From Nitrospiraceae bacterium (lineage in GTDB: Bacteria; Nitrospirota; Thermodesulfovibrionia; UBA6902), in assembly GCA_003599275.1 (NCBI GenBank), contig QZJG01000074.1, forward strand, positions 5,352-69,351: a stretch of 64,000 nucleotides of DNA, read 5' to 3'. A program made the position numbers and the translations under genes. The notes below the pieces were generated by a model. It was not told the origin of the DNA and searched no databases. It saw only the letters and a list, made by a program, of their open reading frames with translations. Every line of letters starts with the position of its first letter. Position 1 is the first letter of the stretch. Positions 17,605 to 43,880 of the stretch are shown here, piece after piece.

Positions 17605-17850
17605 TTACTCCCTGTCCATCCACTCGGGATCGAACTCTTTTAAGACGACGTTCTTCACTCTCTTGAATTTGTCCTTGAAACCGGGTATCAATTCAGCGAG
17701 GGTCATCTTCAGGGATTCAATCTCTATCTTCAGGGAGTCCACCCCTTCCTCAATATCAAGCTTGCCTTTCTCCGCTTCATCTCCTAAAAGTTTGACTTCC
17801 CTCTCCAGCAGTCCCAGTCTCTCCTCAAGTTCCAATTCCTTCTTTAACAT
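17605..17850 (-). CDS. 81-aa coiled-coil protein, function unknown
   Basis: The sequence is heptad-rich and acidic/basic (ELELEERLGLLEREVKLLGDEAEKGKLDIEEG). Confidence 0.45.
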   Translation of the reverse strand: MLKKELELEERLGLLEREVKLLGDEAEKGKLDIEEGVDSLKIEIESLKMTLAELIPGFKDKFKRVKNVVLKEFDPEWMDRE

Positions 17851-17996
17851 AAACTGTCACCTCCTCCACGGCCTTACTGTCTATTATCAAATCCCGCTCG
17901 GGATTGCAAATGATAAACGCAGGATTAAGTCTTTGGAGCGGATGCGGCACATTTGACATCAATGCAGTTTGTAGTAGTATTTGATTAGGGGCAATT

Positions 17997-19694: not shown

Positions 19695-19737
19695 GGACCT
19701 TGAAGGCAAACGCAGGGTGTGCTCAAGGTCCTTTTGA
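19695..19737 (+). terminator. rho-independent terminator
   Basis: GGACCTTGA-N19-TCAAGGTCC is followed by TTTTGAG, directly after the kinase stop codon. Confidence 0.65.
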
Positions 19738-19775
19738 GAATGGATTGAATTCCGGGAGGACGACCGGAATTCACG

Positions 19776-21791
19776 TTACTCGAGTTTTGACATGAAGTTG
19801 TCGTATAATTTTTTCACGTAAGCCTTCTCCTCATCCGGCCCCATCTCAACGAACCTGTCAATCTTACTGCTCGTCTCCTCCGGTATCTCATCTAAAAATC
19901 TTGAAGGGACTGAAGGCGTTTCCTTTCCGTACTTTGTTCTGTGGTCAGTGTATGTAATGTAAAGCTCGTTCATCGCCCTTGTTATTCCGACGTAGAAGAG
20001 CCGTCTTTCTTCCTCGATACCTTCATCACTGTAAGCGGATTTTTTGTGCGGGAGGATGTCCTCCTCTGTGCCCGCTATGAATACCACGGGGAATTCCAGG
20101 CCCTTTGATGAGTGAAAGGAAATGAGGGTCACGCCGTGCCCGCCTTTTTCCTCCTTCTCTTCGATCATGTCCGTGAGCGCCATTGTCTCAAGGAAACCGT
20201 GAATTGAAGGCGAAGCGTCAGTTGACTCGTAATGGGTTATGGACTGGACGAACCCGTCGAGGTTCTCTATCCGGCCGTATGCAGCATCGGGGGTCTTATA
20301 GAGTTCGATTAAATAATCCTTGTAACTGATCTCTTCAATGAGCGCATTGAGCGTCATGCCCATGTCCCTGCCCTTCATGAACAAGTCGCGGTAACGGCTT
20401 ATGAGCTTGAAAAAGTCTTCAGCAGATGCGGCAGCCTTTGGGCTCAATGCGGTAATCCCGCCTGCCTTGCCAAAGGCTTCGAGAAGCCCCGTTGAATCAG
20501 AGCGGGCAAAATCCGAAAGCTTGCTGATGGCCGAAGGACCGAGTCCTCTCTTCGGCACATTTGCCGCTCTTAAAAGACTCATGTCGTCGGAAGGATTTGC
20601 AATGATCTTGAGATACGCTGCGAGGTCTTTGATCTCAGTGCGCTCGAAATAGCTTGTCCCGCCCACAACAGAATAGGGGATCCTCTTGCTTCTAAGCGCC
20701 TCTTCAAAGGGCCTTGAAAATGTATTCGCCCTGTAGATGACCGCCATACTCTCGTATGGAATGCTCTTCCCGTCTTTCATCATCGAGATCCTGTCGGCAA
20801 CCCACTCCGCCTCGTCTTCGGTATCGACGGCCCTGAATATGTTGACCTTTGTGCCGTCACCCCTTTCCGTCCAGAGGGATTTTTCCATCCTCCTCGTGTT
20901 GTTTTTTATCACGCCGTTTGCAGCCTTGAGTATATGGCTGAAGGACCGGTAGTTCTGTTCAAGCCTCACAGTCACAGTGCCGGGGAAGTCTTTTTCAAAA
21001 TCGAGGATATTCCCGATGTCCGCGCCCCTCCATCCGTAAATGGACTGGTCGTCGTCGCCGACAACGCAGAGGTCCTTCCTCTCTCCGGCCAAAAGTTTGA
21101 TGAAATTATACTGGACGCGGTTCGTGTCCTGATACTCGTCTACCATTAAATATCTGAAACGCTCCCTGTATTTTTCGAGTACGACGGGATGCTCCCTGAA
21201 AAGTTTCAGCGTAAGCAGGAGGAGGTCATCGAAGTCGAGGGCATTCATGGACTTCAGCGCCTCGCAGTATCGCGGATGAATTATCTCCGAGGCCTCTTCC
21301 ACAGGGTCACCGGGAGCAGGGGACTCAGTCGATGTAAAATCATTCTTCGCCCTGCTTATCCTTTCGAGTATGGACTCCGCCTTGAAACTCTTATCGTAGA
21401 ACCTGATTTCCGACATGATGTTCCTCAGGAGTGAAACCTGGTCCGATGTGTCGTAGATAGTGAAGTCCTTTCTGTAACCGATGTGCTCTATCTCGCGTCT
21501 CAAAATCCTGAGGCAGAGGGAATGAAATGTAGAGATGACCGGCGAGCCGTTCCCGCCCTTTACCATGGTCTTTACCCTTTCCTTCATCTCCCTCGCGGCC
21601 TTGTTTGTAAAAGTGACTGCCAGGACAGACCCTGCCGGGACGCCTGTGTGTATGAGGTAAGCTGTCCTCATTGTTATCACCCTCGTCTTGCCCGAACCTG
21701 CCCCGGCGAGGATGAGGAGCGGGCCGTCAGTGTGCAGTACAGCTTCCTTTTGCCTTGGATTAAGGCGCGCTATTTCTCTGTAGATGTCCAT
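19776..21791 (-). CDS. UvrD/PcrA/Rep-family superfamily-1 DNA helicase
   Basis: Walker A AGAGSGKTRV, the DEYQDT motif, and typical helicase motifs III-VI. Confidence 0.95.
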   Translation of the reverse strand: MDIYREIARLNPRQKEAVLHTDGPLLILAGAGSGKTRVITMRTAYLIHTGVPAGSVLAVTFTNKAAREMKERVKTMVKGGNGSPVISTFHSLCLRILRREIEHIGYRKDFTIYDTSDQVSLLRNIMSEIRFYDKSFKAESILERISRAKNDFTSTESPAPGDPVEEASEIIHPRYCEALKSMNALDFDDLLLLTLKLFREHPVVLEKYRERFRYLMVDEYQDTNRVQYNFIKLLAGERKDLCVVGDDDQSIYGWRGADIGNILDFEKDFPGTVTVRLEQNYRSFSHILKAANGVIKNNTRRMEKSLWTERGDGTKVNIFRAVDTEDEAEWVADRISMMKDGKSIPYESMAVIYRANTFSRPFEEALRSKRIPYSVVGGTSYFERTEIKDLAAYLKIIANPSDDMSLLRAANVPKRGLGPSAISKLSDFARSDSTGLLEAFGKAGGITALSPKAAASAEDFFKLISRYRDLFMKGRDMGMTLNALIEEISYKDYLIELYKTPDAAYGRIENLDGFVQSITHYESTDASPSIHGFLETMALTDMIEEKEEKGGHGVTLISFHSSKGLEFPVVFIAGTEEDILPHKKSAYSDEGIEEERRLFYVGITRAMNELYITYTDHRTKYGKETPSVPSRFLDEIPEETSSKIDRFVEMGPDEEKAYVKKLYDNFMSKLE

Positions 21792-28494: not shown

Positions 28495-30366
28495 TTACTG
28501 AAGGACAGTCAGCAGACCTTCCAGCTCTTCCTCAAACTCTTTTGTCCTGCCTTCAACCTCCGCGCGCAGCAGGTCAAGCTTTGAAAAAAGGGAGTCGAGT
28601 CCGGCCTTTGAATCGTGGAGCTTTTTTGTGAGTATTTTAATGGCTTGCCCGTCATTCTTAAGGTAGGCCTCTATAATTTCCCGGTTGTCCCGCTCGATCA
28701 TTTCTTCCAGCTTAACAATTTCTTTTTCCGCTTCATCAATGCTCTTTTGCAGGGCGCCCATTGTTTTTGATTTTTTATTCAGCAGCTCCGCCCGTTCTCG
28801 CCTGAGCTGTTTTTTATTGATGGAATTGTTCCGGGACTTCGGTTTTTTGAGGCGGGACACACCGGAATCATTTTCACTCTTCCAGCCGACACGGTCAAGG
28901 AAGTCCTGATACGTTCCTTCGAATAAAGTCACTTTCCCATCATCAAAGACAATCAGGCGCGTGGCCAGCGCGTGAAGCATCATTTCACTGTGAGTCACTA
29001 TAATTACAGAGCCGTTGAACTCAGCCAGGGCCTCAACCAGGGAATCATTGGATTCCATATCAAGATGGTTTGTCGGCTCATCCAACACGAGCATGTTGGA
29101 GGGGCTGACGAGCAGCTTGCCAAGCAGCACACGGCTCTTTTCGCCTCCGGAAAGGACACTGATCTTTTTTAACGCATTGTCCCCGGGAAACATCATAATG
29201 CCGCAAATTTTGCGGGCCGCGCCCCGGCTGCCGTCGGGATGCACGTCTATAATTTCTTCTTCAACGGTTTTGTGCAGGCTGAGGCGGTTTATATTGGTCT
29301 GGCCGAAATAGGCCATCTGCAGCTGATCATGATGACTGACATCGCCGGTTTTGGTTTTCAGCTCTTTTGCAAGCAGATTCAGCAGTGTTGTTTTTCCCTT
29401 GCCGTTTTTGCCGATAATGGCTATGCGGTCCTTCTTTCCCACTGAAAAGCTCAAACCGTCAATCAGGGGAGGACCGTCACTGTCAAATGAAAAAGATATG
29501 TCCCTTACCTCCATCAGCATTTTCCCTGTAAAAGACGCTGACCTGAACGCAAAGTCAAGATTCCTTATCTCCGTCAATTTTTCAAGGCTCCCTTTTCTCT
29601 GCAGGGCCTTTACCCGTGACTGAACGGCCCTGGCCTTGCTTGCCTTTGCCCTGAACCTGTTTATGAATTCCTCTGTTTCCCTGCGCTTCTTGTCATCATT
29701 CACCCTGGTCTTCTCGTGTATCTCTTCCTCCATCAGCAGCTGCTGATATACCTTGTCGGTCGGTCCGGCCTCTTTCCGCATCTTGCACCGGTGGATGGCC
29801 ATCGTGTGCGTAGTCACGCCGTCCATGAAATCACGGTCATGGGTAATAATTATGAGCTCCTTCTTCCAGTTGCGCAAAAACTGTGTAAGCCAGCGAAGCG
29901 AGATAATATCAAGGTAGTTGGTAGGCTCGTCGAGCAGGAGAAGATTGGGGTCGGAGACGAGCGCCTTTGCAAGATTTAAACGGACCTGGTATCCCCCTGA
30001 TAAATCCAGTGGATTGAGACTGAAATCTTCCAGGGTAAAACCGAGTCCCGTAAGAATGATTTCCGCCTTATATGTCTCATCGATGCCGTCCTCGTTGTCC
30101 CGGAGACTCAGGCACGCCTCCTTCAGCACAGTGTCTTCAGAGAAGCTGATATGCTGTGACAGATGACCTATCATATATCCGTTTGGAATGCTGATACATC
30201 CTGAATCAGGGTGTTCCTGCCCTAATATCATTTTAAAGAGAGTGGTTTTGCCGTGCCCGTTTCTGCCGACAAGGCCTACGCGTTCACCCGGATTAAGGGT
30301 AAAACCGGCCTTCTCAAAAATGACCTGACGACCATAACATTTATCCAGGTTATTTACCTGTATCAT
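28495..30366 (-). CDS. ABC-F family ATPase (two ABC cassettes, C-terminal coiled coil)
   Basis: The start is MIQVNNLDKCYG at 30366. Cassette 1 has GRNGHGKTT/LSGGYQ and cassette 2 has GKNGKGKTT/LSGGEK. The 119-codon upstream extension in the ORF track has no support. Confidence 0.95.
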   Translation of the reverse strand: MIQVNNLDKCYGRQVIFEKAGFTLNPGERVGLVGRNGHGKTTLFKMILGQEHPDSGCISIPNGYMIGHLSQHISFSEDTVLKEACLSLRDNEDGIDETYKAEIILTGLGFTLEDFSLNPLDLSGGYQVRLNLAKALVSDPNLLLLDEPTNYLDIISLRWLTQFLRNWKKELIIITHDRDFMDGVTTHTMAIHRCKMRKEAGPTDKVYQQLLMEEEIHEKTRVNDDKKRRETEEFINRFRAKASKARAVQSRVKALQRKGSLEKLTEIRNLDFAFRSASFTGKMLMEVRDISFSFDSDGPPLIDGLSFSVGKKDRIAIIGKNGKGKTTLLNLLAKELKTKTGDVSHHDQLQMAYFGQTNINRLSLHKTVEEEIIDVHPDGSRGAARKICGIMMFPGDNALKKISVLSGGEKSRVLLGKLLVSPSNMLVLDEPTNHLDMESNDSLVEALAEFNGSVIIVTHSEMMLHALATRLIVFDDGKVTLFEGTYQDFLDRVGWKSENDSGVSRLKKPKSRNNSINKKQLRRERAELLNKKSKTMGALQKSIDEAEKEIVKLEEMIERDNREIIEAYLKNDGQAIKILTKKLHDSKAGLDSLFSKLDLLRAEVEGRTKEFEEELEGLLTVLQ

Positions 30367-30570
30367 AATTATCCCTTCTTTGTTCCGGAACAAATTGCTA
30401 TCGGTTTTAAACAGCCCAGGCGGTTGAAACAGGTGGAACGGACCTTTTACTTTTCGCTCTTCCGGACATTCGCGGTTTAATTCAGGCAGCGGATTACTAT
30501 ACCTTAAATCTGATAAAAAAAGGAAATACGCGGAGCCGTGCCCATCCCGATTTTTATCTGAACACAAGTC

Positions 30571-30601
30571 TTGAAACTTTTTGAAATAAAACGGGTATAA
30601 T
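30571..30601 (+). promoter_or_regulatory. sigma-70 promoter candidate for the SWIB gene
   Basis: TTGAAA, a 19-nt spacer, then a perfect TATAAT (30596-30601). The spacer is longer than optimal. Confidence 0.3.
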
Positions 30602-30653
30602 ATCTGACCCCGGAAGGTAATTCCATTTAAATCTAATATGAAGGAGTTAAAAA

Positions 30654-30980
30654 ATGGCAGAAGCAAAAGGACTGAACAAACCGGTAAAGCTGAAAAAAGA
30701 TCTTGCGGAGTTTCTTGGAGCAACGGAACTTCCCAGGACGGAGATCACCAAAAAACTGTGGGACTATATTAAAGCGAATAAACTTCAGACTAAGACCGAA
30801 AACGGAAAGCCCGAGAACGCAGGCAAGTTTATTGTGGCAGACGCTAAACTGCTCCCGATCTTCAGAAACACAAAATCCACAAGCAAATCAGGCGCGCTCA
30901 CTGACCTTACAAATCTGAATGAAGGCCAAACGATCAACATGATGCAGATGGCCGCTGTTGTTGCTGCAAACATAGAATAA
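30654..30980 (+). CDS. SWIB/MDM2-domain protein
   Basis: AAGGAG RBS. LAEFLGATELPRTEITKKLWDYIKANKLQ is a typical SWIB core. Confidence 0.85.
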   Translation: MAEAKGLNKPVKLKKDLAEFLGATELPRTEITKKLWDYIKANKLQTKTENGKPENAGKFIVADAKLLPIFRNTKSTSKSGALTDLTNLNEGQTINMMQMAAVVAANIE

Positions 30981-31060: not shown

Positions 31061-31531
31061 ATGACCAATAATGATATCCTGCGCCGTGTCCGCTACGCCT
31101 TCGACTTTAACGATTCGAAGATGATCGCGTTGTTCGGCCTGGCTGATCATCAGGTAACGCGGGAGCAGATCAGCAATTGGTTAAAAAAAGATGATGACCC
31201 CTCGTATCAGGAATGCAGCGACTCTGAGATGGCGATCTTCCTGAATGGTTTAATTATCGACAGACGAGGCAAAAAAGAAGGGCCGCAACCCGGGCCGGAG
31301 CAGCGTTTGACCAATAATATCATTTTCAAAAAATTAAGGATCGCATTAAACCTGAAGGCCGAAGACATATTGGAAATTCTGGGCCTTGCCGGCATGCGCA
31401 TCAGTGAACACGAATTGAGCGCGTTTTTCCGCAGGCCGGACCATAAACACTACCGTGAATGTAAAGACCAGGTCCTGCGCAATTTCCTGAAAGGTGTACA
31501 GCTTAAATATCGCCCTGATACGGCGATGTGA
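31061..31531 (+). CDS. DUF1456 (YehS-like) protein
   Basis: The N-terminus is MTNNDILRRVRYAFDFND and the protein has a duplicated-domain layout. Confidence 0.75.
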   Translation: MTNNDILRRVRYAFDFNDSKMIALFGLADHQVTREQISNWLKKDDDPSYQECSDSEMAIFLNGLIIDRRGKKEGPQPGPEQRLTNNIIFKKLRIALNLKAEDILEILGLAGMRISEHELSAFFRRPDHKHYRECKDQVLRNFLKGVQLKYRPDTAM

Positions 31532-31945: not shown

Positions 31946-32039
31946 CGGGGCCACTTCTGATATCTGCATCTATGTGCTCTGGTTTTTTGTATTGTTGTCT
32001 TTACCTGTGAAATCTGTGGATATCCCTGTCGTTTTTAGG

Positions 32040-32441
32040 TTAGTGGAACTTTTCCCTGCTTTTCCGGGTTGTTTTCTTTGGAGAAGCTTTTCTCTCTTTA
32101 GCTACAGCAGGTTTGGCGGGCCTGACTTTTTCCGACCTTATGGCAATGTCCTCTTTAGTACCAAGCGCCGGGCCTTGTACCTCTATCTCTTCGACTGCGG
32201 TTGCATAATTTTCCTTGTCCCGCCCGGCAAACCTCGGCATTGTTCCTTCAACCTCTTCAAGGATCTCCTTTTCCGCAATCATCGGTTCTTCTCCTTCGGG
32301 CTCCTCTATGTCCTGACTGGCATGTCTTGTAAGCACTATCCTCTCAGCATCAATCCAGTTCTCAAAATCTCTGCCGCCGATGCCTCCACTTTTTTTATAG
32401 AGTTCATGAGCCACCTTTGCTATTTCTTCATGCAGGTCCAT
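32040..32441 (-). CDS. DUF2934-domain protein with an acidic/basic low-complexity tail
   Basis: The N-terminus is IAKVAHELYKKSGGIGGRDFENWIDAERIV. Confidence 0.7.
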   Translation of the reverse strand: MDLHEEIAKVAHELYKKSGGIGGRDFENWIDAERIVLTRHASQDIEEPEGEEPMIAEKEILEEVEGTMPRFAGRDKENYATAVEEIEVQGPALGTKEDIAIRSEKVRPAKPAVAKERKASPKKTTRKSREKFH

Positions 32442-32514
32442 TTATTACCTCCCGTATATTACTTTATAAAACTATATCACGTCTGTAATACAATTCAACT
32501 CCGATATGAAACAG

Positions 32515-35500
32515 TCAATATCCCCTCTCGTTCACGGTGAACATGCAGGCCCCGGAATATACAAGCCCGGTCGAGCCGTCGATGCTGAGAAAGGTCCCTT
32601 CTCTCACCTCATAGTTTCCTATGACGGCATAAGGAGTGCCGTCCTCATCAGTCATAATGGCCATGTCCGGACAGCCGACGACAGCGGTGAGATCGAATTT
32701 CTGCGAGAGGATCGCGGCATGAGATGTTGCACCGCCGACAGATGTAACGATGCCGTCTATCTCCGGCATCACCGATACATCCTGGGTGCTCGTCTCTTTT
32801 CGGAGGAGTATGATCGGCTGTTTTGTGTCGTCCCGCAGTCTGCGGACCCGTCCCGGAGCAGCGGCAAAGGCGGCCACCCCGCTGAGCGCCCCGCCGTTCA
32901 TCCCGACGCCCCGGCCGATCACGTTTGATTCCATTTTGCATATCTCGTGGAATTTTTTTGTAAGGCCCCTGTGAAACTCCATCCTCCTGGTCTGAAGTAT
33001 ATATATCGCTCTCTTACCGTCGCCTGTGACATAAACGGATTCCACCTCCTGAGGGATGCCGCCCATCGCGGCTTCTATTTTGTCCGATACTTCCCTGTAC
33101 AGGTTGAAAAGCGCCGGGTCGTTCTCTTCGAGACTGTCGCCCCGGTCCGACTGTTCACGCGCAAGCGGACGGTTGATCATTCTCCCGTATACAATGTCGT
33201 CACCGGTTGCCGACTCCCTGATCTCGCCATATATCCCTTTTTCGAGGCCCTGCGGCTTCCTTGTGAAAAAGACGGCGGCGCCCGCGCCCCTTTTGTTGCC
33301 GTATATCATCTGCATGAGCGTCACGGACGTTCCCCAGTGGTCCGATACGTTCATTGCTTCCCTGAATTGAACGGCCCTTTCGCCATACCACGATTTATAG
33401 ACCGCCTTTATGGATTGGCTCAATTGCTCAAATACGTCCGAAGGTATTTTATGTCCCTTGCCGGACAATATGCCGAGATATCCGGAGACGATCTTTTTTA
33501 TGCCTCCGGCGTCAAGGTCGCGTATCTCATTCACATGGCAGTGATTCAACACCTCATCCTTCAGCGCTTCAAAAAGGTCCGGCTCCGCTTCAAAGACGAC
33601 GGCAGCATACTGCTCCACAAATCTCCTGTATGAATCCCATGCGAGCCATTCATCGCCTGAAGCCCCGATGAACCCCTCAAGTGTCTCGCTGTTGATGCCG
33701 CAGTAGAGTATCGTTGAAAGCATCCCCGGCATTGATATATACGAGCCGCTCCTTACGGAAAGAAACAGGGGATTATGTCTGCCGCCGAATCTGCAGCCGG
33801 TGCGCGTCTCTATTACCCTGACCGCCTCCCTGAGCGACTGCATAAAATCTTCGGACCCTGAATAGTCTTCATACGTTTTTGTCATTGCCGAAGAAAAGAT
33901 GCTCCCATGAGGCACCGTCAGGCCGAGCTCTTTGAGCACGACAAGATTTTTTGCCTTGCTGCCGATAAACGGGGCGAGGCGCGCGGCATCTCCGGATGAC
34001 AGATCATGCAGCGAAAACCATTCCCTTTTCTCTTCTTCATACTCCGCAGGCCCGGCCTCGATGTCTTCCCCGTTCCTGACCGCGGACAAAAGCGCCTTTA
34101 TTAAACTGTTCAGCAGCCTGTCAAGCTCCTCGGTCCCCGTTACATTGCTTATCATGTCCCGCATGATGACATCCGAGGCCTTGTTGACAAAGTTCTCATC
34201 ATGGACACCAATGCTTTTCAGGAAGGGAGGAAGGTCTTCAGGGCCGCATGTCGCTAATATTTCCATAAGGGGCCCGTGAAACGTCCTGTATAGAAGCTCC
34301 ACCATCCATGTGAGCTCCTTCTGCCAGAGCCTGAGCAAGTCGATCACCTGCGAGAGATGGAGCCTGTTTGTCTTTATGATCGCGACAACCTCCGAGACGA
34401 CCGCGTTGCCGAGGTCCTGGTACCTGAAAAACCGGTCGATCCCGCCGAGGCCCATTAAGCGCTCCTGCAAAGCATCCGCGTTTAAACTTCCACCCTTTGC
34501 CCCGATCTCCACGATCATCTCCTCAAACAGCAGGCGCACCCGTTCTTCCAGCCTGAAGGCATCGGCAAGCGCGTCGAACTTGGGTTCGTGATAGTAGCCC
34601 ATCACGGAAGGAATGCCGAAGGCTATGTGCCTTTTGAAAAACAGGGACTCCTGCGGCTCCGTCTTCTGCGGCGATGTGAAAATTTCTTTGAGTTTATTCA
34701 GACGCTCCAGCATATCTGAAAATCCGGTCGCAGGATGTTCCGCATGTGCAATGCCGCTCAGGGAATACTTCTTCAATATTTCCCCGTAGAGACGGCATAC
34801 GAGGATTATCTTGCCTCTTATCTCCTCTGAAAATTGCGCTGTCTGAAGATGCATCTCAAATGTCTCATCGGAAATGGAAAGGATTTTATGGAAATCGATG
34901 TCCCGCCCGTCGAAGATCCCAAGCTCCTCAAAAAGCGGCCTCAAGGCCGAAGAATAACTCTTCAGCAATTCAGGATTTAAATTAATGCGGACTTCCTCCG
35001 GTACCCTGCCTTTCAAGACATCCGCATCGCCGCGCACCCAGGCGCTTATAACGGCCTCTATGATGGGAATATTGTTTGTGCTCGCGTTGGCATGGACCTG
35101 TTTTCGTAAAAAATAGATGACGGGGTCATTCCCCCATGAATCTATTTCAGTGGAAAGCTCCCTGATCCTGCCCGAGGCGCCTACCTCGTTGAAGTAGACG
35201 GGGAGCCTTTTCAGCAGCATGTGATGGAGCAGAAAGTCCTTTCCCGTGTCCACTGAATTCAGATACGCGGAGACCTCCCTCTGGAATAGCCTGTCATCAG
35301 GAATAAATACTCCGCTTACATGGAGATTGCATATCAGATGGACCAGCACATCACGGAGCTTTACCGGCTCAAGCCCCACAACAGTGAGAAAACCCGACAG
35401 CCTTTTCAGGTGGAGGGGGTTGGTCAATTCGGCCCAGGTCTCATCGGAAAAACCCGCTATCCCCGGGGGCGGCACTTTTATTTTTTTCAGGATGTTTTTA

Positions 35501-36879
35501 TATGTCTCTATAAGGTCGGGGCCGCCGCTTTTGAGAATGAGTCCGGCCACATCCCTGTTGAAGACGATATCGTCCTGCATCCCGGTCCTGCCGAGGGTAA
35601 CGAGCAGACCCGCGCAGGCAACGTTCCGCTTCAGGGACAAGAGCCTCTTCATCAGCTCCTTGAAACTTATAATAGCCGGCCCGCGGACGTCCCTCAACCT
35701 GCTTAAAGACTCTAACTCTCCAATGGCCGTCGCCAGTGTTCCGTCATCTATTTTCTCAGCACCTTCATTTAAAACCGTGAAGAATGCCCTGGTCATCCCC
35801 ATGCGGTCAAGAACGCCGACATCGAGGCTGTGGATTATGCCGATAATCTCCGGAAGCAGGGCGCCTTTGTTCAGCAGGTCTTCGGCGTTCCCGATCTTTT
35901 CGATCAGAACTTCCCTGCTGCCTTCAGAAAATTCTTCCAATTGTAAAACACTTTTTTCATCGAGGCGGCTTTTAAGCGCCGCGATCGTCTCCTCACGTAT
36001 TACCGGCGCAGACCGCGCCTCTGTCGCGATTGAGGACAAAAGTATTTTGACGAGAGGGACCAGATCAGACCCCGGCAGTTTTACGTTTATAAGGCTTATG
36101 ACCCGCAGGACCTGCCTGGGCCGCGAAAAGAGGTTTGTCCGCGCGGAGCATGCCTCTGCCAGCCAAGTGTCGACTACAGTCGCCAGCCGTGCGTTTTCGG
36201 TCTCATTTTCGAGCGGTAATTCAATGAACGAAAGGGCGTTGGACAGCGCCCGCTCCTTCGAACCTTCGCCGGCATATTCGCAGGCCCTGAAAAGAAAGCG
36301 GGACAATAGTCGGTGCCATACATAGAATGCGTCCCTTATATACCAGAAAAGATTTTTTGAGAAGCTGTTTATGTCCTCCGAAAGTGGTCCCCAGTTCTTC
36401 TTCGTTGAAAATATCGCTGAGATGAGAGACTCGGCCTTTTTCCTCAACCCTTCCTGTTCCCTGACGGATTCACCAAGTATCTTGAAATTCGTCCCCTGAA
36501 GGTCCGCCGATATTTCAAGCGCCGAGACGTACAGACCGCCCATCTCCTCTTTCTTCAGAAGGAACGTGCCGATGTGCCTGCCGTTTTGGACCACATCGAG
36601 CTGCAGATTCCTGGCGTCTTCGATGACCGCAGGGGCGGCCCTGAGATGGAAATACCCGTCTGTTATCTCATCCCTCGTTATTTCTGTCCCGCCCTGGATA
36701 AGGCATATAAAATACTTTCCGGCCGGCATAGGGATAATCGTCCCCTCAAAGTTGACTGTCCCTCCTCTTTCAGACATGCAGAAATCCTTCATAACGAGGG
36801 CCGTGATCGTCCCCTTATATCCTGTGGCGATAGTGCCCGTCAGATAGTCGAGGGAGCATATGTTGAATGAGTCATCCAT
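32515..36879 (-). CDS. 1454-aa protein: unknown ~950-aa N-terminal region + PPDK-type nucleotide-binding (ATP-grasp) domain + PEP-utilising phospho-His swivel domain; no PEP/pyruvate TIM-barrel domain
   Basis: Residues from about 950 read GSKAKNLVVLKELGLTVPHG, LFLSVRSGSYISMPGMLSTILYCGIN, TLMQMIYGN, FTRKP..GEIRESATGDDIVYG and ILQTRRM. The swivel is ILLRKETSTQDVSVM...GGATSHAAILSQKFDLTAVVG, with its His codon at 32719-32721. The ORF ends 68 residues after the His. Confidence 0.85.
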   Translation of the reverse strand: MDDSFNICSLDYLTGTIATGYKGTITALVMKDFCMSERGGTVNFEGTIIPMPAGKYFICLIQGGTEITRDEITDGYFHLRAAPAVIEDARNLQLDVVQNGRHIGTFLLKKEEMGGLYVSALEISADLQGTNFKILGESVREQEGLRKKAESLISAIFSTKKNWGPLSEDINSFSKNLFWYIRDAFYVWHRLLSRFLFRACEYAGEGSKERALSNALSFIELPLENETENARLATVVDTWLAEACSARTNLFSRPRQVLRVISLINVKLPGSDLVPLVKILLSSIATEARSAPVIREETIAALKSRLDEKSVLQLEEFSEGSREVLIEKIGNAEDLLNKGALLPEIIGIIHSLDVGVLDRMGMTRAFFTVLNEGAEKIDDGTLATAIGELESLSRLRDVRGPAIISFKELMKRLLSLKRNVACAGLLVTLGRTGMQDDIVFNRDVAGLILKSGGPDLIETYKNILKKIKVPPPGIAGFSDETWAELTNPLHLKRLSGFLTVVGLEPVKLRDVLVHLICNLHVSGVFIPDDRLFQREVSAYLNSVDTGKDFLLHHMLLKRLPVYFNEVGASGRIRELSTEIDSWGNDPVIYFLRKQVHANASTNNIPIIEAVISAWVRGDADVLKGRVPEEVRINLNPELLKSYSSALRPLFEELGIFDGRDIDFHKILSISDETFEMHLQTAQFSEEIRGKIILVCRLYGEILKKYSLSGIAHAEHPATGFSDMLERLNKLKEIFTSPQKTEPQESLFFKRHIAFGIPSVMGYYHEPKFDALADAFRLEERVRLLFEEMIVEIGAKGGSLNADALQERLMGLGGIDRFFRYQDLGNAVVSEVVAIIKTNRLHLSQVIDLLRLWQKELTWMVELLYRTFHGPLMEILATCGPEDLPPFLKSIGVHDENFVNKASDVIMRDMISNVTGTEELDRLLNSLIKALLSAVRNGEDIEAGPAEYEEEKREWFSLHDLSSGDAARLAPFIGSKAKNLVVLKELGLTVPHGSIFSSAMTKTYEDYSGSEDFMQSLREAVRVIETRTGCRFGGRHNPLFLSVRSGSYISMPGMLSTILYCGINSETLEGFIGASGDEWLAWDSYRRFVEQYAAVVFEAEPDLFEALKDEVLNHCHVNEIRDLDAGGIKKIVSGYLGILSGKGHKIPSDVFEQLSQSIKAVYKSWYGERAVQFREAMNVSDHWGTSVTLMQMIYGNKRGAGAAVFFTRKPQGLEKGIYGEIRESATGDDIVYGRMINRPLAREQSDRGDSLEENDPALFNLYREVSDKIEAAMGGIPQEVESVYVTGDGKRAIYILQTRRMEFHRGLTKKFHEICKMESNVIGRGVGMNGGALSGVAAFAAAPGRVRRLRDDTKQPIILLRKETSTQDVSVMPEIDGIVTSVGGATSHAAILSQKFDLTAVVGCPDMAIMTDEDGTPYAVIGNYEVREGTFLSIDGSTGLVYSGACMFTVNERGY

Positions 36880-36902
36880 GGTGAAAAAAGGAGACGGTTA
36901 TT

Positions 36903-38249
36903 TTATTTGGGAAGGATGAAATAGAAATTGTTTCCGTAATGGGTCGGCTCATAACCCGCCACCCCGCCGTGTATCTCTACGGCGTTTTTGATGAAGGACA
37001 GGCCGTGACCGGTGCCGGGCTGGGTCGCTACGTTGTTGCCGCGATATCCTTCCTCAAACAGTTTCTCCCTGTCTTCGAGGGGGATATGCGGACCGGTGCT
37101 GAAGACATTGAATTTTACGCCGTCCCTGCCCTCGCCGAAAAAATCCTTTTTGATCTCGTGCCCGTAAGAGATATATTTAAGCGTCTCGCCCGAATCGCCC
37201 GTTACGGACTGGGTGTATTTGACCGCATTCGAAAAGAGATTTGCATAAACCTGCGCTATCAGTCCCACATCGACAACGGTTATAATTTCGGCTTCGGGGA
37301 TGCCGCTGAGACGGTCATTGACTGAGATGCCCATCTTTCTGAACTGCTCGATATACCTCTCGATCTGAGGCTGTACGACATCGATTTTAATGTTGCAGGG
37401 CTTTGTGCGAAGTGTGAGCCGGCCCTGGTCGAAATGACTTTTCCTGAAAAGCGTCTCGATAAAGAGACTCATGTTCTTGTAATGCTTCTCTATATTCTCC
37501 AGCTCCGAATTCAACCCCTGGTTTATATCGGTCATCTCCTTAAGAAAATTTTTCATGCAGGCCTCGTCGCAAAGCCCCCCCGATGATTTTTCGGCGAAGA
37601 CCTTCTCCATCTCGATGTTCTTCATTATCTTTCTTCTGAGGCCCCTGAGGAAAAGCCTGTAAACCATATTGGGGACTATGATGTTATGCTCGATATCGGC
37701 TACAAGGGAGCGGATGAATTTCAGGTGTTCGATGTTCTTCTCGACGAGAAACTTGTTGTGTATGTTGAACCCGATGCGGTTTGCGTACTTCTGGAAGAAA
37801 AGGACCCTGTGCTCATCGAGGTCTTTGACGGGATAGATCTCGAGGAAGCCGAGGACATCGTCTTTTGTCTCAAAAGGGAGCTGTTCAATCAGCGGCTCCT
37901 TTCCCCGGATCGTCATGACAAGGCTGTTCCTTGCCGTATAATAAGGCCGGGAACCGGGTCTTATATCATCGGGCGGCGGCGAAAACAATACATCTTTCCC
38001 TTCTTCCGTCTTGGCAATAAGTATCAGGGAATTAAGTTTGGGGTCCACGATGTAAAGACGCGCGTCGAGGTCAAAAAAACTCCGTGGGATCGCGACGCAC
38101 AACGCATAAAGGTCCTCGATGCCGTCGAATTCCTGGGCAAGATCGAAAAAGGTCATTATGGCGTTGTTCTCTTCAGGGGTAAAATCATAGACCTCGTAAT
38201 CTTCTTTTTTGCTTTCTATACGTTCGAGTATGTGTTTTATATTTTCCAT
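36903..38249 (-). CDS. cytoplasmic GAF-domain histidine kinase-like protein (orphan)
   Basis: I prefer the start MENIKH at 38249. The N-terminal half is GAF-like. A possible H-box is ADIEHNIIVP. The N-box is LFSNAVKYT and the G-box is GTGHGLSFIKNAVE. It ends 23 nt before the 1454-aa gene. Confidence 0.75.
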   Translation of the reverse strand: MENIKHILERIESKKEDYEVYDFTPEENNAIMTFFDLAQEFDGIEDLYALCVAIPRSFFDLDARLYIVDPKLNSLILIAKTEEGKDVLFSPPPDDIRPGSRPYYTARNSLVMTIRGKEPLIEQLPFETKDDVLGFLEIYPVKDLDEHRVLFFQKYANRIGFNIHNKFLVEKNIEHLKFIRSLVADIEHNIIVPNMVYRLFLRGLRRKIMKNIEMEKVFAEKSSGGLCDEACMKNFLKEMTDINQGLNSELENIEKHYKNMSLFIETLFRKSHFDQGRLTLRTKPCNIKIDVVQPQIERYIEQFRKMGISVNDRLSGIPEAEIITVVDVGLIAQVYANLFSNAVKYTQSVTGDSGETLKYISYGHEIKKDFFGEGRDGVKFNVFSTGPHIPLEDREKLFEEGYRGNNVATQPGTGHGLSFIKNAVEIHGGVAGYEPTHYGNNFYFILPK

Positions 38250-38330
38250 AAAATATTGCCGGGGAAGGCCGTAAATCGAAAGGATCAAGAGTCCCGCCCG
38301 CCTGCTCAATTCTACCACAATTATAGCATC

Positions 38331-39119
38331 TTATATCCTGGCCTCTTTCAAGGCTTCTCCGCACGCGCATTTTCTCTGTTCGGGAATCAGGGCAAACGTC
38401 TCCTTAAGGAGGGACTTGATTTTTTCGGTCGAGGCCTTCATCGCCTCCATGACTTCCGCTACGGTGAGTTTTCTCCTGTTTATCCCTGCCGCATAGTTTG
38501 CGACCACGGAGACACCTGAATAACATATTTCCAGCTCTCTTGCGAGTGAGGCCTCAGGCATGCCGGTCATGCCGACAACGTCTCCGCCGAGCATGCCGAA
38601 GCTCCTTATTTCGGACGCGGTCTCAAGCCTCGGCCCTTCAACGGCAACATATGTCCCAGCCTCTTTAACAGAGACACCGGCCCGCTTTGCCGCTTTTAAA
38701 AATATTCGCCGGAGCTCGGGACAATAAGGCCCGGTGAAGTCTATATGTACGACCCCGCCCTCGCCGTCATAAAAAGTAGAGGCCCTGTTTTTCGTCATAT
38801 CCAGTATCTGGTCCAGGATCACGATGTCCCCGGGTTTTAGTCCTTTCCTGATGCCGCCCACCGCGCTGACAGACAGAATTCTTTCGACGCCGAGTTTTTT
38901 GAAACCCCAGATATTCGCCCTGTAGTTGATCATATGCGGAGGGATATTGTGATGCTTCCCGTGGCGCGGCAGGAAGATGATTTCTCTGTCGCCAAATTCA
39001 CCGATCAGATATTGATCTGAAGGTCTGCCGAAAGGGGTGTTGACCCTTTTCGATTTCTTCAGAACGAGGCCCCTGATTTCATATAATCCGCTTCCACCGA
39101 TTACGCCCGTCTTTGACAT
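38331..39119 (-). CDS. mtnP: S-methyl-5'-thioadenosine phosphorylase (MTAP)
   Basis: GVIGGSGLY, FLPRHGKHHNIPPHMINYRANIW, and PNP/UDP-family motifs throughout. Confidence 0.9.
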   Translation of the reverse strand: MSKTGVIGGSGLYEIRGLVLKKSKRVNTPFGRPSDQYLIGEFGDREIIFLPRHGKHHNIPPHMINYRANIWGFKKLGVERILSVSAVGGIRKGLKPGDIVILDQILDMTKNRASTFYDGEGGVVHIDFTGPYCPELRRIFLKAAKRAGVSVKEAGTYVAVEGPRLETASEIRSFGMLGGDVVGMTGMPEASLARELEICYSGVSVVANYAAGINRRKLTVAEVMEAMKASTEKIKSLLKETFALIPEQRKCACGEALKEARI

Positions 39120-39213: not shown

Positions 39214-40605
39214 ATGCCGATAATTCCAGAGGAGCTTTTTTCAAAGATTATTAAACGGGCGCTGTCAAGGGGCGGTGATTATGCGGATGTATTTGCAGAG
39301 CATGAGACCCCCCTGTCAATACAGCTTGAAGATGATAAGATTGAGAAGATCGTCTCCGGTTCGGATTCCGGCGTGGGGGTGAGGGTAATTTACGGAGACA
39401 GGTCGGCGTATGCTTACAGTAATGATTTTTCAAAAGATTCCCTGTTAGGCATTGCCGATGCGGTCAGCAGGGCCGTAAAGGAAGGCAGCGTAAAAGATGT
39501 GGCCCTTGATTTAAGAAAGGCCGTTGCCCCGGTCGATTTCAAAATAAAATACAACCCCCGCAATGTCGGTATAGAAAAAAAGCTCTCGCTTGTAGAAAAT
39601 GCCAACAAGGCCGCAAGAGGTGTCGGCTCCAGGATCAAACAGGTAACAGTGATTTACAGAGACACCATTCAGAATGTTTGCATCGCAACATCAGACGGGA
39701 CCATAGCCGAGGATGAACGCATTTATACGGTTGCCCTGGTCCAGGTGGTTGCTTCGGAGGGCGATAAACTTCAGACCGGGTACGAACCGGTCGGAGGATT
39801 TGCGGGGTTTGAACTTTTCGAAGAGAACCCGATGGATGAAATAGCAGTTATTGCTGCTCAGAAGGCTGTAACGATGCTGAATGCAAGAAAGGCGCCCGGA
39901 GGCAGAATGCCGGTTGTAATTTCAGCCAGGGCGGGGGGTACAATGATTCATGAGGCCATCGGACATGGTTTGGAAGCTGACCTTGTCCAGCAGGGGTTGT
40001 CTGTGTATACCGGCAAGACAGGACAACAGATTGCTTCTCCCCTGATTACTATCCTGGATGATTCGACACTTCCAAACAAACGAGGATCCTTCAGGTTCGA
40101 CGATGAGGGAATCGTTTCGCAGCGGACGGTCCTGGTTGAAAAAGGGGTACTCGTTGGTTATATGTATGACAGGCTGACGGCCATGAAAGACGGTGTCGCA
40201 TCAACCGGCAATGGAAGGCGCCAGTCATATAAGGACAGGCCGATTCCGAGGATGACCAACACTTTTATAGCTCCAGGTAAAGGTGACCCTGAGGAAATTA
40301 CAAGATCGGTGGAGAAAGGTCTTTTTGTCAGAAAAATGGGTGGAGGGCAGGTCAACACCGTAACGGGAGAATTTGTCTTTGAAGTCTCCGAGGGCTATAT
40401 GATAGATAAAGGGAAAATTGGGGAGCCGGTGAGGGGCGCTACGCTTATCGGGAACGGGCCGGAAGTCCTGAAGTCAATCGATATGGTAGGCAACGACCTG
40501 GGTTTTGCCATAGGGACCTGCGGTAAGGATGCACAGGGGGTCCCTGTCTCCGATGCCATGCCCACAGTCCGGATCCCCGAGATGGTTGTAGGTGGCGAAG
40601 TATAA
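39214..40605 (+). CDS. tldD: metalloprotease TldD
   Basis: The HEAIGHGLE motif, a C-terminal GGGQVNTVTGEFVF stretch, and a length typical of TldD. Confidence 0.95.
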   Translation: MPIIPEELFSKIIKRALSRGGDYADVFAEHETPLSIQLEDDKIEKIVSGSDSGVGVRVIYGDRSAYAYSNDFSKDSLLGIADAVSRAVKEGSVKDVALDLRKAVAPVDFKIKYNPRNVGIEKKLSLVENANKAARGVGSRIKQVTVIYRDTIQNVCIATSDGTIAEDERIYTVALVQVVASEGDKLQTGYEPVGGFAGFELFEENPMDEIAVIAAQKAVTMLNARKAPGGRMPVVISARAGGTMIHEAIGHGLEADLVQQGLSVYTGKTGQQIASPLITILDDSTLPNKRGSFRFDDEGIVSQRTVLVEKGVLVGYMYDRLTAMKDGVASTGNGRRQSYKDRPIPRMTNTFIAPGKGDPEEITRSVEKGLFVRKMGGGQVNTVTGEFVFEVSEGYMIDKGKIGEPVRGATLIGNGPEVLKSIDMVGNDLGFAIGTCGKDAQGVPVSDAMPTVRIPEMVVGGEV

Positions 40606-40864: not shown

Positions 40865-41779
40865 ATGAGGTTTTTCAGGTCTAAAATGAGGCTGCAGAAT
40901 ACATTAAAAAAAGAAATTGTCATAACAGGCAAAGGTCTTCATACGGGTCATGATATTAATATGAGACTCAGACCCGCGCCAAGGGACACCGGCGTCATCT
41001 TTATAAGAATCGACAAGGGAAATACGAAAATCAAGGCGGGCGTAAGCTCGGTCGTCGATACAACTTTTGCCACCACTCTTGCAGCTGAAGGCGTAAGGGT
41101 AGGAACGGTTGAACATCTTTTGGCCGCTTTTTCAGGTCTTAATATAGATAACGTATACGTCGAACTTGACGGCCCCGAAGTGCCCATAATGGACGGTAGC
41201 GCCCTGTTTTTTGTAAATATGCTGATGGCAGCCGGAATAGCCAAACAGGGAAAAACCGTGTCATTCATAAGGATACTTGAGCCGATAGCCATTATGGAGG
41301 GACAAAGCCAGATAGCAGTCACCCCTTACGAAGGCACAAGAATAACGTATCGCCTTTTTTACACACATCCGGCCTTCGGAGAACAAAGACTGGGGGTCGA
41401 CATCACGAGAATGAATTTCGCTAATGAACTGGCTCCGGCAAGGACATTTGGGTTCTTAAGGGATGTCGAGATGCTGAAATCGAAAGGTTTGGCAAAAGGG
41501 GGATCGCTGGAAAATGCGATTGTGCTTGGTGAAAAAGATGTTTTAAACGGTAACAAACTCAGATTCAAGGATGAATTTGTCAGACATAAGATACTTGACG
41601 CTGTGGGAGATATCTCATTAATAGGACTGCCGATTTACGGACATATCATCGCAAATAAATCCGGGCATACCCTGCATATTAAACTGCTCAGGAAAATCCT
41701 CTCCTGCAGGGAATCATGGGAACTTGTTTCAGAGCCTTTCATTACGCCTTCGGCTTCCGGTGTAGCTGCTCAGGTCTGA
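40865..41779 (+). CDS. lpxC: UDP-3-O-acyl-N-acetylglucosamine deacetylase
   Basis: TLKKEIVITGKGLHTG and FVRHKILDAVGDISLIG. The start may instead be the second ATG at 40886. Confidence 0.95.
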   Translation: MRFFRSKMRLQNTLKKEIVITGKGLHTGHDINMRLRPAPRDTGVIFIRIDKGNTKIKAGVSSVVDTTFATTLAAEGVRVGTVEHLLAAFSGLNIDNVYVELDGPEVPIMDGSALFFVNMLMAAGIAKQGKTVSFIRILEPIAIMEGQSQIAVTPYEGTRITYRLFYTHPAFGEQRLGVDITRMNFANELAPARTFGFLRDVEMLKSKGLAKGGSLENAIVLGEKDVLNGNKLRFKDEFVRHKILDAVGDISLIGLPIYGHIIANKSGHTLHIKLLRKILSCRESWELVSEPFITPSASGVAAQV

Positions 41780-42846: not shown

Positions 42847-42872
42847 CATGGGTATTGTGCTATAATTCCCCT

Positions 42873-43880
42873 ATGAAAGAAGCAATGTTTTATGAAAAAA
42901 TCGAGAAGAGGAAAATCAAATGTTTCCTCTGCGCGCACAACTGTCTGATCCTGGAAGGCAGGCGGGGCATTTGCGGCGTTCGTGAAAACAGGGAAGGCAC
43001 GCTTTACAGCCTCGTGTACGGAAAGCTTGCGTCCATGAACATCGATCCAATAGAAAAAAAACCGCTCTTCCATTTCCATCCCGCTTCAACCTCTCTTTCA
43101 ATTTCAACCGTCGGGTGTAATTTCAGATGTAAGCACTGCCAGAATTATGGTATATCCCAATTCCCGAAATTGCACACTGAAATACCCGGAGAAAATGTTA
43201 CTCCCGAAGCAGTAGTCGCTTACGCTCAAAAATCAGGGAGCAAAAGTATTTCTTACACCTACACCGAGCCGACGATATTTCTGGAATTTGCGCTTGACTG
43301 CGCAAAGCTTGCGCACGGCAAGGGGATTAAAAATGTATTTGTCAGCAACGGGTACACGAGTCCGGAAGCGACGAAGGCCATCGCCCCTTTCCTTGACGGC
43401 AACAATATAGACCTCAAGGGTGATGACGACTTCTATAGAAAAATATGCGGCGCAAGACTTCAGCCCGTTCTGGATACGATAAGACTTATGAAAGAATTGG
43501 GGATATGGGTTGAAATTACGACGTTAATTATCCCATCATATAATGACTCTGAAAAAACCATAAACGGCATAATAGATTTTATTCTGTCCGTGGACCCTGC
43601 CATCCCATGGCATGTGTCCCGGTTTTATCCGACATATCAGCTTCTGGACCAGCCCGGGACGCCGGTAAGTAGTTTACTGTGGGCAAGGGAACAGGGAATG
43701 AGAAGAGGACTCAAATACGTTTACACCGGCAATGTCCCCGGCGAAGGAGGAGAAAATACATATTGTCCGGAGTGCGGGGAGCTCCTGGTAGAGCGTTTGG
43801 GTTATCAGATTAAACAGAACAGGATAATTGAGGACCGCTGCTTTAGATGTGCAGCAGGAATCGAAGGAGTCTGGAGGTAA
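42873..43880 (+). CDS. amrS: AmmeMemoRadiSam-system radical SAM enzyme
   Basis: An N-terminal CFLCAHNCLI...CGVREN stretch and the radical SAM motif CNFRCKHCQN. The family-typical C-terminus reads YCPECGELLVER...CFRC. Confidence 0.85.
   Translation: MKEAMFYEKIEKRKIKCFLCAHNCLILEGRRGICGVRENREGTLYSLVYGKLASMNIDPIEKKPLFHFHPASTSLSISTVGCNFRCKHCQNYGISQFPKLHTEIPGENVTPEAVVAYAQKSGSKSISYTYTEPTIFLEFALDCAKLAHGKGIKNVFVSNGYTSPEATKAIAPFLDGNNIDLKGDDDFYRKICGARLQPVLDTIRLMKELGIWVEITTLIIPSYNDSEKTINGIIDFILSVDPAIPWHVSRFYPTYQLLDQPGTPVSSLLWAREQGMRRGLKYVYTGNVPGEGGENTYCPECGELLVERLGYQIKQNRIIEDRCFRCAAGIEGVWR

Follow-up and report, generated by a model that had tools for sequence, protein, structure and literature searches.

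The swivelling-histidine dikinases form a small set of enzymes, composed of pyruvate phosphate dikinase (PPDK), phosphoenolpyruvate (PEP) synthase, rifampin phosphotransferase (RPH), the phenol and acetophenone kinases and glucan, water dikinase (GWD), each of them with a different acceptor domain and a different chemistry. In GWD, moreover, the His domain precedes the nucleotide-binding domain. Work on RPH, HpeHI, CreHI and the phenylphosphate synthase PpsAB revealed a common arrangement, in which an ATP-grasp domain and a C-terminal swivelling His are combined with an acceptor domain that is not a triosephosphate isomerase (TIM) barrel and that sets the specificity (PMC4844700, PMC12167813), and VadK has shown that truncated PPDK modules stay active as autokinases (PMC13400623). 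Here we describe a giant gene found in a window of 64,000 nucleotides (the whole stretch of DNA analysed, positions 5,352 to 69,351 of contig QZJG01000074.1, assembly GCA_003599275.1, from a Nitrospiraceae bacterium). The open reading frame (ORF), for which we use the working name BIG, encodes 1454 amino acids (aa) at 32515-36879, as an initial annotation made from the sequence alone had claimed, and its product is 100% identical to 'hypothetical protein C4560_14585' of the metagenome-assembled genome (MAG) Nitrospiraceae bacterium, which is the sole annotation it carries.

BIG and its homologs make up an uncharacterised and widespread family of single-chain swivelling-histidine phosphotransferases (dikinases) derived from true PPDK; a literature search, not exhaustive, so that an earlier description is possible, found no description of it. 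The reading that we favour on balance, with some reserve as to the whole of it, is that BIG is a PPDK-derived dikinase holding its acceptor, most likely a three-carbon (C3) intermediate, in a conserved core, and that the histidine kinase encoded next to it has no part in this function. BIG adds a further family to the dikinases, with a proposed acceptor domain for which neither Pfam nor the PDB offers a detectable relative. The gene and the parts of its product are as follows (AF2, AlphaFold2).

32515..36879, minus strand: BIG, 1454 aa (ORF calls)
36550..36879, minus strand: predicted beta-sandwich, aa 1-110 (AF2 secondary structure)
35539..36549, minus strand: clade-specific all-helical region, aa 111-447 (AF2; no Pfam match)
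34030..35538, minus strand: conserved core, proposed acceptor-substrate domain, aa 448-950, helical with one beta-hairpin (alignment, AF2)
34588..34653, minus strand: beta-hairpin with the invariant motif FKRHIAFGIPS, aa 743-764 (alignments, AF2)
32980..33993, minus strand: PPDK-type ATP-grasp nucleotide-binding domain, aa 963-1300 (Pfam, phmmer, alignment)
32548..32925, minus strand: swivelling phospho-histidine domain, aa 1319-1444 (Pfam; phmmer, including the isolated central domain 2fm4, E 1.6e-14)
32719..32721, minus strand: codon of His1387, in GGATSHAAIL (alignment with Clostridium symbiosum PPDK)

A PPDK-type phosphotransfer module at the C-terminus

The initial annotation had recognised in the last ~500 residues of the protein the ATP-grasp and swivelling-His domains of a PPDK or PEP synthase, with the catalytic His in GGATSHAAIL, and both Pfam and phmmer agree with the assignment, the codon proposed being that of His1387. 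Pfam finds only two domains in the whole of BIG: PPDK_N covers aa 1010-1236, and the PEP-utilizers mobile domain (PF00391, E 3e-17) covers aa 1354-1438. Among PDB sequences searched with phmmer, residues 10-508 of the C. symbiosum PPDK matched aa 963-1444 (E 1e-65), a stretch that comprises the entire nucleotide-binding domain and the central swivelling domain, and the module is 32% identical to residues 11-509 of this enzyme. What follows the catalytic His is short: 67 residues separate it from the stop, instead of the 68 first counted, and the absence of a TIM barrel that had been deduced from this length holds, as neither Pfam nor phmmer against the PDB gave a PEP-utilizers_C (PF02896) signal in BIG, and no barrel appears in the largely helical AF2 model of the N-terminal region.

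For a closer view of the catalytic residues, the last 500 residues of homologs from the two clades described below, 88 of them from Nitrospirota and 116 of the Bacteroidales type, were aligned with the C. symbiosum PPDK, in which K22, R92, G101, E323, Q335 and R337 are the ATP-grasp residues known from mutagenesis. BIG residues K975, R1043, G1052, E1278, E1280, Q1296 and R1298 correspond to K22, R92, G101, D321, E323, Q335 and R337, respectively. The equivalents of K22, R92, G101, E323, Q335, R337 and H455 are conserved in both sets of homologs, save that Lys stands in for R337 in 18 of the 88 Nitrospirota sequences. The position of D321 is occupied by Glu in 203 of the 204 homologs, the window protein included (E1278). 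His1387 is invariant in the 88 and the 116 sequences, and so is the Ser-His of the TSH motif, the Thr being replaced by Ala or Ser in 17 of 204. The initial annotation had allowed for a loss of essential ATP-binding residues on careful alignment; they are kept. Because the ATP-grasp residues and the Ser-His pair are conserved throughout the homologs, the module looks like a catalytically competent unit of ATP-to-His phosphotransfer and not like a decayed remnant, and BIG has the residues required for His autophosphorylation.

By NCBIfam score the module is closer to true PPDK, with 303 bits on TIGR01828 (cut-off 843), than to the short 'PPDK', with 229 bits on NF004531 (cut-off 456), or to PEP synthase, every score being far under its cut-off.

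The N-terminal region and its conserved core

The first 950 residues, which the initial annotation could not relate to anything it recognised, keep this status after our searches. Five pieces taken from the window protein and from a Bacteroidales homolog gave no Pfam match even at E<=5, noise only; no PDB sequence was matched by aa 1-950; and the NCBIfam matches are restricted to the PPDK-type module. An AF2 model of aa 1-950, built from a 34-sequence alignment, is confident (mean predicted local distance difference test, pLDDT, 85.7) and starts with the beta-sandwich (aa 1-110), the rest being all-helical except for the single hairpin at aa 743-764. A Foldseek search of the PDB with this model returned only exportin-like alpha-solenoids at TM 0.12-0.14, a non-specific helical similarity. 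Modelled alone, the core (aa 448-950) gave pLDDT 86.2 and a predicted TM-score of 0.85; its PDB matches went no further than E 0.11 and TM<=0.15, and a profile of the core run against PDB sequences retrieved nothing meaningful, only a designed minibinder at E 0.02. No known substrate-binding domain is found there, an outcome that the initial annotation had regarded as the interesting one.

At ~26% identity, about 34 core positions are invariant between the clades, most of them charged and rich in R, K, H, D and E (W482, H490, D528, F532, Q533, P560, G567, A568, R573, D580, D585, F590, R592, K593, H596, K704, Y705, K749, R750, H751, I752, A753, G755, I756, P757, S758, G761, Y763, E765, F768, Q844, R907 and D920), and the window protein has every one of these residues. 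The core is marked by the motifs FKRHIAFGIPS, IPDDRLFQR, PVYFNEVGA and YFLRKQ.H. The tip loop of the hairpin that carries the first motif is probably mobile, because its pLDDT falls under 50 both when the whole N-terminal region is modelled (aa 750-755) and when the core is modelled alone (aa 752-755). The preceding ~450 residues, on the other hand, show no homology detectable between the Nitrospirota and the Bacteroidales-type clades (HHalign probability 0.3%). The beta-sandwich at aa 1-110 is highly conserved within the Nitrospirota clade, with near-invariant residues, and absent from the other clades. Residues 1-447 are probably regulatory or structural.

An intact phosphotransfer module joined to ~950 residues without known domain is most naturally read as a phosphotransferase with a new acceptor site. 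The proposal of the initial annotation that BIG is a large phosphotransferase whose acceptor would be bound by the novel N-terminal region is in this sense supported by the sequence, with the PEP domain missing.

Family size and architecture

A search with aa 1-950 retrieved 102 clusters at 90% identity, nearly all of 1450-1470 aa and with the same pair of Pfam domains; where a source is named, it is a Nitrospirota or Thermodesulfovibrionales MAG. A second clade, obtained from a genome scan, has proteins of ~1365 aa from MAGs labelled as Bacteroidales, other Bacteroidota and one Alphaproteobacteria. This Bacteroidales-type clade matches the window protein at aa 448-1443 only, with ~27% identity, and a seed taken from it retrieved 1957 clusters (about 2000 at 90% identity). 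Carriers of BIG are Nitrospirota, Bacteroidales and other anaerobes known from MAGs, rumen and gut Bacteroidales among them, that is, abundant organisms. The annotations given to these proteins, where there are any, read 'hypothetical protein', 'PEP/pyruvate-binding domain-containing protein' or 'pyruvate phosphate dikinase'. The last of these is misleading, and its correction matters for metabolic reconstructions.

A hidden Markov model of the core, run against 1.84 billion representative proteins, retrieved 415 proteins (clusters at 50% identity). All full-length matches measure ~1280-1540 aa, and in each of them the PPDK-type module follows directly on the core; none of the 415 shows the core in another architecture, the shorter matches looking like contig fragments. 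The core is a non-promiscuous domain, which exists only as the partner of a PPDK-type phosphotransfer unit. The region in front of it varies. One subclade has an N-terminal hemerythrin domain (HHE cation-binding; L087:1166-5788, P0293 and P0303), a fusion that hints at a sensory or regulatory input through the variable N-terminal region. In three loci (L061, L067 and L068) the homolog is split over several consecutive ORFs, which could be frameshifted pseudogenes or errors of long-read assembly; ORFs at all the compared loci were called as simple longest ORFs.

Linkage with GAPDH genes in the sister clades

The conserved partners of BIG in the clades outside the Nitrospirota are genes of the glyceraldehyde-3-phosphate dehydrogenase (GAPDH) family. 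All 12 Bacteroidales-type genome loci have the order gap1-BIG-gap2 or BIG-gap2, where gap2, a GAPDH paralog of 413-417 aa in these loci, lies 11-31 nt after BIG (112 nt at one locus), and gap1, a type I GAPDH, precedes BIG at nine of the 12, with a stop/start overlap of -4 or -8 nt in six of these nine. The gap-BIG-gap2 cassette is also found in L083-L085, in surroundings otherwise unrelated, two of these loci being labelled Ignavibacteria and Cloacimonetes (cluster labels). In a sulfate-reducer contig (L086) the order is gap1-BIG-gap2-pgk-tpiA-secG, with BIG and gap2 inside a classical gap operon. Of two further subclades, one (L088 and L089) has gap1-BIG, and in the other (L092) BIG is accompanied by a convergent Gp_dh gene of 424 aa. 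A 364-aa protein without Pfam match is encoded in gap2's place downstream of BIG in L088 (11342-12436). Three Nitrospirota loci (L025, L036 and L065) have a type I gap gene 136-303 nt after BIG, and in a fourth (L034) a small ORF comes in between, all four being among the members more divergent from the window protein. Close relatives of the window protein have pentose-phosphate genes as neighbours, or else glycogen phosphorylase together with a sugar ABC transporter.

The linkage also holds in the reciprocal direction. In a metagenome scan with gap2 as seed, BIG lies immediately upstream at the five gap2-like loci that have at least 4 kb of upstream DNA (5/5), and at none of the 70 canonical GAPDH loci of the same scan. 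The paralog itself (413-424 aa, with four insertions; loci L069-L086, L093-L096 and L099, e.g., L070:13110-14363) was found only directly beside BIG homologs. It scores 295 bits on the type I GAPDH model (TIGR01534, cut-off 367); the catalytic Cys and His are retained, as are the STGAAK motif and the arginines of the phosphate site. According to the GapA/GapB rule of Bacillus subtilis, Asp32 confers NAD specificity in GapA-type enzymes. At this position gap1 has Asp, gap2 has Arg in 16 of 16 sequences, and the partner gap of the Nitrospirota has Ala, within a GapB-like VAANS motif. Because Asp32 is replaced by Arg or Ala, the dedicated partners of BIG look like NADP(H)-using GAPDHs of the anabolic type. 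Such a tight reciprocal linkage, found once within a gap-pgk-tpi operon, suggests that lower glycolysis or gluconeogenesis, a part of metabolism usually taken as fully mapped, contains a reaction or a control point not yet recognised.

Relationship to the described dikinases

Compared with the PPDK of C. symbiosum (EC 2.7.9.1, 1KBL), BIG has homologous ATP-grasp and swivelling-His domains, the TSH motif and the ATP-grasp catalytic residues, with D321 changed to Glu. It differs in having no TIM barrel and in the position of its extra module, which is N-terminal (~950 aa, no known fold) and not C-terminal, and it scores under the PPDK cut-off. Could BIG nonetheless be a functional PPDK or PEP synthase, with a pyruvate/PEP site in a non-homologous N-terminal region? 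The closeness of the C-terminal module to true PPDK and the lower-glycolysis gene context would be compatible with this idea. However, in the complete chromosome of a member of the Thermodesulfovibrionales (L001), a canonical three-domain PPDK of 889 aa with PEP-utilizers_C is encoded at 17622-20291, 3.2 kb downstream of the BIG homolog. Because both coexist in at least this genome, BIG is not the PPDK of the cell. Moreover, the TIM barrel is lacking and the gene pairing is specific to GAPDH, not to enolase or pyruvate enzymes, so we regard a PPDK or PEP synthase function as very unlikely.

VadK of Mycobacterium tuberculosis (Rv1127c, NF004531) is, like BIG, PPDK-derived and keeps the nucleotide-binding and His domains, which are all it has. 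The NF004531 model spans 534 positions and describes a short protein without added domain, unlike BIG with its 950-aa extension and conserved core, and the BIG score is about half of the cut-off; the lineages also differ, Actinomycetes for VadK and Nitrospirota and FCB-group bacteria for BIG. RPH and the two-component small-molecule dikinases HpeHI, CreHI and PpsAB follow the same logic as BIG, and the His domain is the last one in the chains of both RPH and BIG. The ATP-grasp and His domains of BIG are however of the PPDK type: on the RPH model NF041857 it reaches 19 bits against a cut-off of 999, with only the His domain matching. None of the RPH, HpeH and HpeI structures is among the Foldseek matches listed for the N-terminal region or the core.

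Plant GWD offers another precedent for a giant dikinase. By published descriptions, GWD1 is likewise very large (~1400 aa), has non-catalytic N-terminal modules that are carbohydrate-binding modules (CBMs), and shuttles phosphate through a His to an acceptor other than pyruvate. In this line, BIG might be an alpha-glucan or glycogen dikinase with its predicted beta-sandwich as CBM, an idea to which the homolog beside glycogen phosphorylase and the sugar ABC transporter would lend some support. The beta-sandwich is, however, missing in the much larger Bacteroidales-type clade, neither CBM45 (searched on aa 1-130) nor any other CBM or Pfam family was matched at E<=5, and BIG has the nucleotide-binding domain before the His domain, the reverse of the GWD order. 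BIG is besides bacterial, with GAPDH genes as conserved partners and not starch or glycogen genes. We consider a glucan dikinase hardly probable.

Because BIG lacks the TIM barrel of PPDK and stays under its cut-off, has neither the architecture of VadK nor a sufficient score on its model, and does not have RPH-type domains, it falls outside the known families. It is best described as a new family among the swivelling-His dikinases, akin to those with alternative acceptors and a member of none.

Proposed mechanism and acceptor

In the mechanism that we propose, ATP would bind the ATP-grasp domain (aa 963-1300), as homology and the conserved catalytic residues indicate, and would pyrophosphorylate or phosphorylate His1387, following the established chemistry of the family. 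The swivelling domain may then carry the phosphate to an acceptor held by the core (aa 448-950), which would take the place of the PEP/pyruvate TIM barrel as the second site, as suggested by its conservation and by its exclusive co-occurrence with the module. The invariant Arg, Lys, His and Asp residues, together with the mobile K749-R750-H751 hairpin loop, could form this second site and bind an anionic acceptor and Mg2+. We hold this general route, from ATP to His and from His to an acceptor site, to be quite likely.

As for the acceptor, the operons of the sister clades, the only source for this proposal, suggest a small anionic C3 intermediate from either side of the GAPDH reaction, a GAPDH-linked small molecule that we put forward tentatively, as a possibility rather than a probability. 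The simplest chemistry would be the conversion of 3-phosphoglycerate (3-PG) and ATP (plus Pi or H2O) into 1,3-bisphosphoglycerate and AMP (plus PPi or Pi), with the 1,3-bisphosphoglycerate handed to the NADP-type GAPDH, in what would be an ATP-to-AMP-driven alternative to phosphoglycerate kinase (PGK). In the reverse direction it would be a PPi-dependent, ATP-yielding step like that of glycolytic PPDK. The phosphorylation of glyceraldehyde or glycerate would be an alternative reaction. As estimated from standard free energies, a 3-PG dikinase is ~15-30 kJ/mol more favourable for gluconeogenesis than PGK. The most specific version of the proposal, in which BIG and its dedicated GAPDH paralog constitute a new pair of steps in central carbon metabolism that interconverts 3-PG and 1,3-bisphosphoglycerate at the cost of ATP to AMP (plus Pi or PPi), seems unlikely to us as it stands. 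If true, anaerobes could get from 3-PG to triose phosphate without PGK, on a path that is pulled energetically and uses a GAPDH of the NADP type, and the step pair would occur in many Bacteroidales, Cloacimonadota, Ignavibacteria, sulfate reducers and Nitrospirota.

Several observations weigh against a metabolic dikinase acting on a C3 intermediate. The substrate assignment comes from gene neighbourhood only, and in the clade of the window BIG usually stands by itself. All ORFs flanking BIG at the 80 genome loci were clustered, and among 150 genes flanking the Nitrospirota homologs, with 166 Pfam families, the commonest family occurs in seven; no conserved partner emerges in this clade, and GAPDH is adjacent at about four of ~60 Nitrospirota loci. 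The window protein itself has the core motifs of the family in front of its module, and the 64-kb window contains no adjacent GAPDH gene, nor any gap, pgk or tpi gene. In L086 pgk is part of the same operon, so that BIG is no simple replacement of PGK. Furthermore, 850-950 extra residues are much for the binding of a C3 acid, the only fold matches are generic alpha-solenoids, which would fit a protein-binding scaffold too, and VadK, the closest characterised truncated PPDK, is a regulatory autokinase and not a metabolic enzyme (PMC13400623).

In another explanation, BIG is a VadK-like regulatory autokinase or protein phosphotransferase that would charge His1387 from ATP and whose helical N-terminal scaffold would bind and control partner enzymes, the GAPDH paralogs for instance, instead of phosphorylating a metabolite. 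VadK, a PPDK minus its PEP domain, autophosphorylates and binds enzymes of the methylcitrate cycle (PMC13400623), and BIG has a certain score on the short-'PPDK' model. The resemblance of the N-terminal region to alpha-solenoids alone, which are typical protein-binding scaffolds, the hemerythrin sensor domains fused in one subclade and the variable N-termini, suggestive of regulatory inputs, go in the same direction. That many charged core residues are invariant at 26% identity is, however, a pattern typical of a catalytic pocket, the start/stop overlaps with metabolic genes look like pathway units, and the NF004531 score lies far below its cut-off, the module being closer to true PPDK. A regulatory role is accordingly one that we would keep in mind as improbable but not negligible.

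The neighbouring histidine-kinase-like gene

Upstream of BIG on the same strand, the initial annotation had seen a GAF and HATPase kinase, and suggested that BIG may be wired to it.

36903..38318 (probable ATG at 38249), minus strand: histidine-kinase-like gene, HATPase_c at aa 353-470, 3' end 23 nt upstream of BIG

The position, the strand and the HATPase_c domain (E 4e-13, Pfam) are as described. A GAF domain is not detectable by sequence, aa 1-350 giving noise only in Pfam at E<=1, though the fold may be GAF-like. The best PDB match of the kinase is HK853, aligned from helix 2 of the dimerization and histidine phosphotransfer (DHp) domain onward; the DHp-like region has a plausible H-box, LVADIEHNIIVPN, read by eye, and no HisKA match in Pfam.

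In this genome kinase and BIG are probably co-transcribed, with a gap of 23 nt and no terminator-like site between them on that strand. Moreover, as had been noticed, the kinase has no receiver domain nearby, the closest ones in the window (about 3095-3445 and 57156-57455) lying at a distance of at least ~19 kb, and kinase homologs occur within ~5 kb of BIG in two related genomes, all of which could be taken in favour of the two-gene signalling or phosphotransfer unit formerly proposed. The comparison of loci, however, does not sustain this unit. Only two of the 80 BIG genome loci have a kinase homolog (L028:19220-20560 and L048:16687-18135, 62-63% identity), which lies ~5 kb downstream, with two or three genes of a reverse-strand cassette between it and BIG, a loose vicinity and no operon. 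At the other 78 loci tblastn (E<=1e-5) found no kinase homolog, the closer homologs of BIG (L037, L081 and L082) have no adjacent kinase gene, and HATPase_c appears in only four of the 150 genes flanking Nitrospirota homologs. Since a homolog is present at only two of 80 loci and is not adjacent there, the kinase is a genome-specific neighbour, not a conserved partner or a part of the system. The initial annotation had named a pair not conserved elsewhere as grounds against its idea, and this is what the loci show; a BIG-kinase unit, largely refuted, is now highly improbable.

Genomic surroundings in the window

The genes on either side of the pair had been identified as MTAP and a DUF2934 gene, and both identifications were confirmed.

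38331..39119, minus strand: MTAP, S-methyl-5'-thioadenosine phosphorylase (TIGR01694, 302 bits, cut-off 275)
32040..32441, minus strand: DUF2934 gene, 3' of BIG (Pfam)
28495-30723, minus strand: ABC-F ATPase, housekeeping neighbour
31061-31531, plus strand: DUF1456 protein, housekeeping neighbour
39214-40605, plus strand: TldD/PmbA metallopeptidase, housekeeping neighbour
40865-41779, plus strand: LpxC, housekeeping neighbour
42855-43880, plus strand: radical SAM protein, housekeeping neighbour

Neither MTAP nor the DUF2934 gene is kept beside the BIG homologs of the 80 genome loci, and none of the five housekeeping genes is conserved there. A reading of the locus as a defence system was dropped, as PADLOC gave no match for BIG or for the DUF2934 gene, its single weak match being the ATPase of the kinase. 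A 188-aa ORF on the plus strand (31974-32540), without Pfam match and probably no true gene, runs antisense across the entire DUF2934 gene (32040-32441) and shares 26 nt with the 3' end of BIG. Further away, a plus-strand ORF of 406 aa at 27197-28417 matches the CfrBI restriction endonuclease family (PF09516, E 1e-21).

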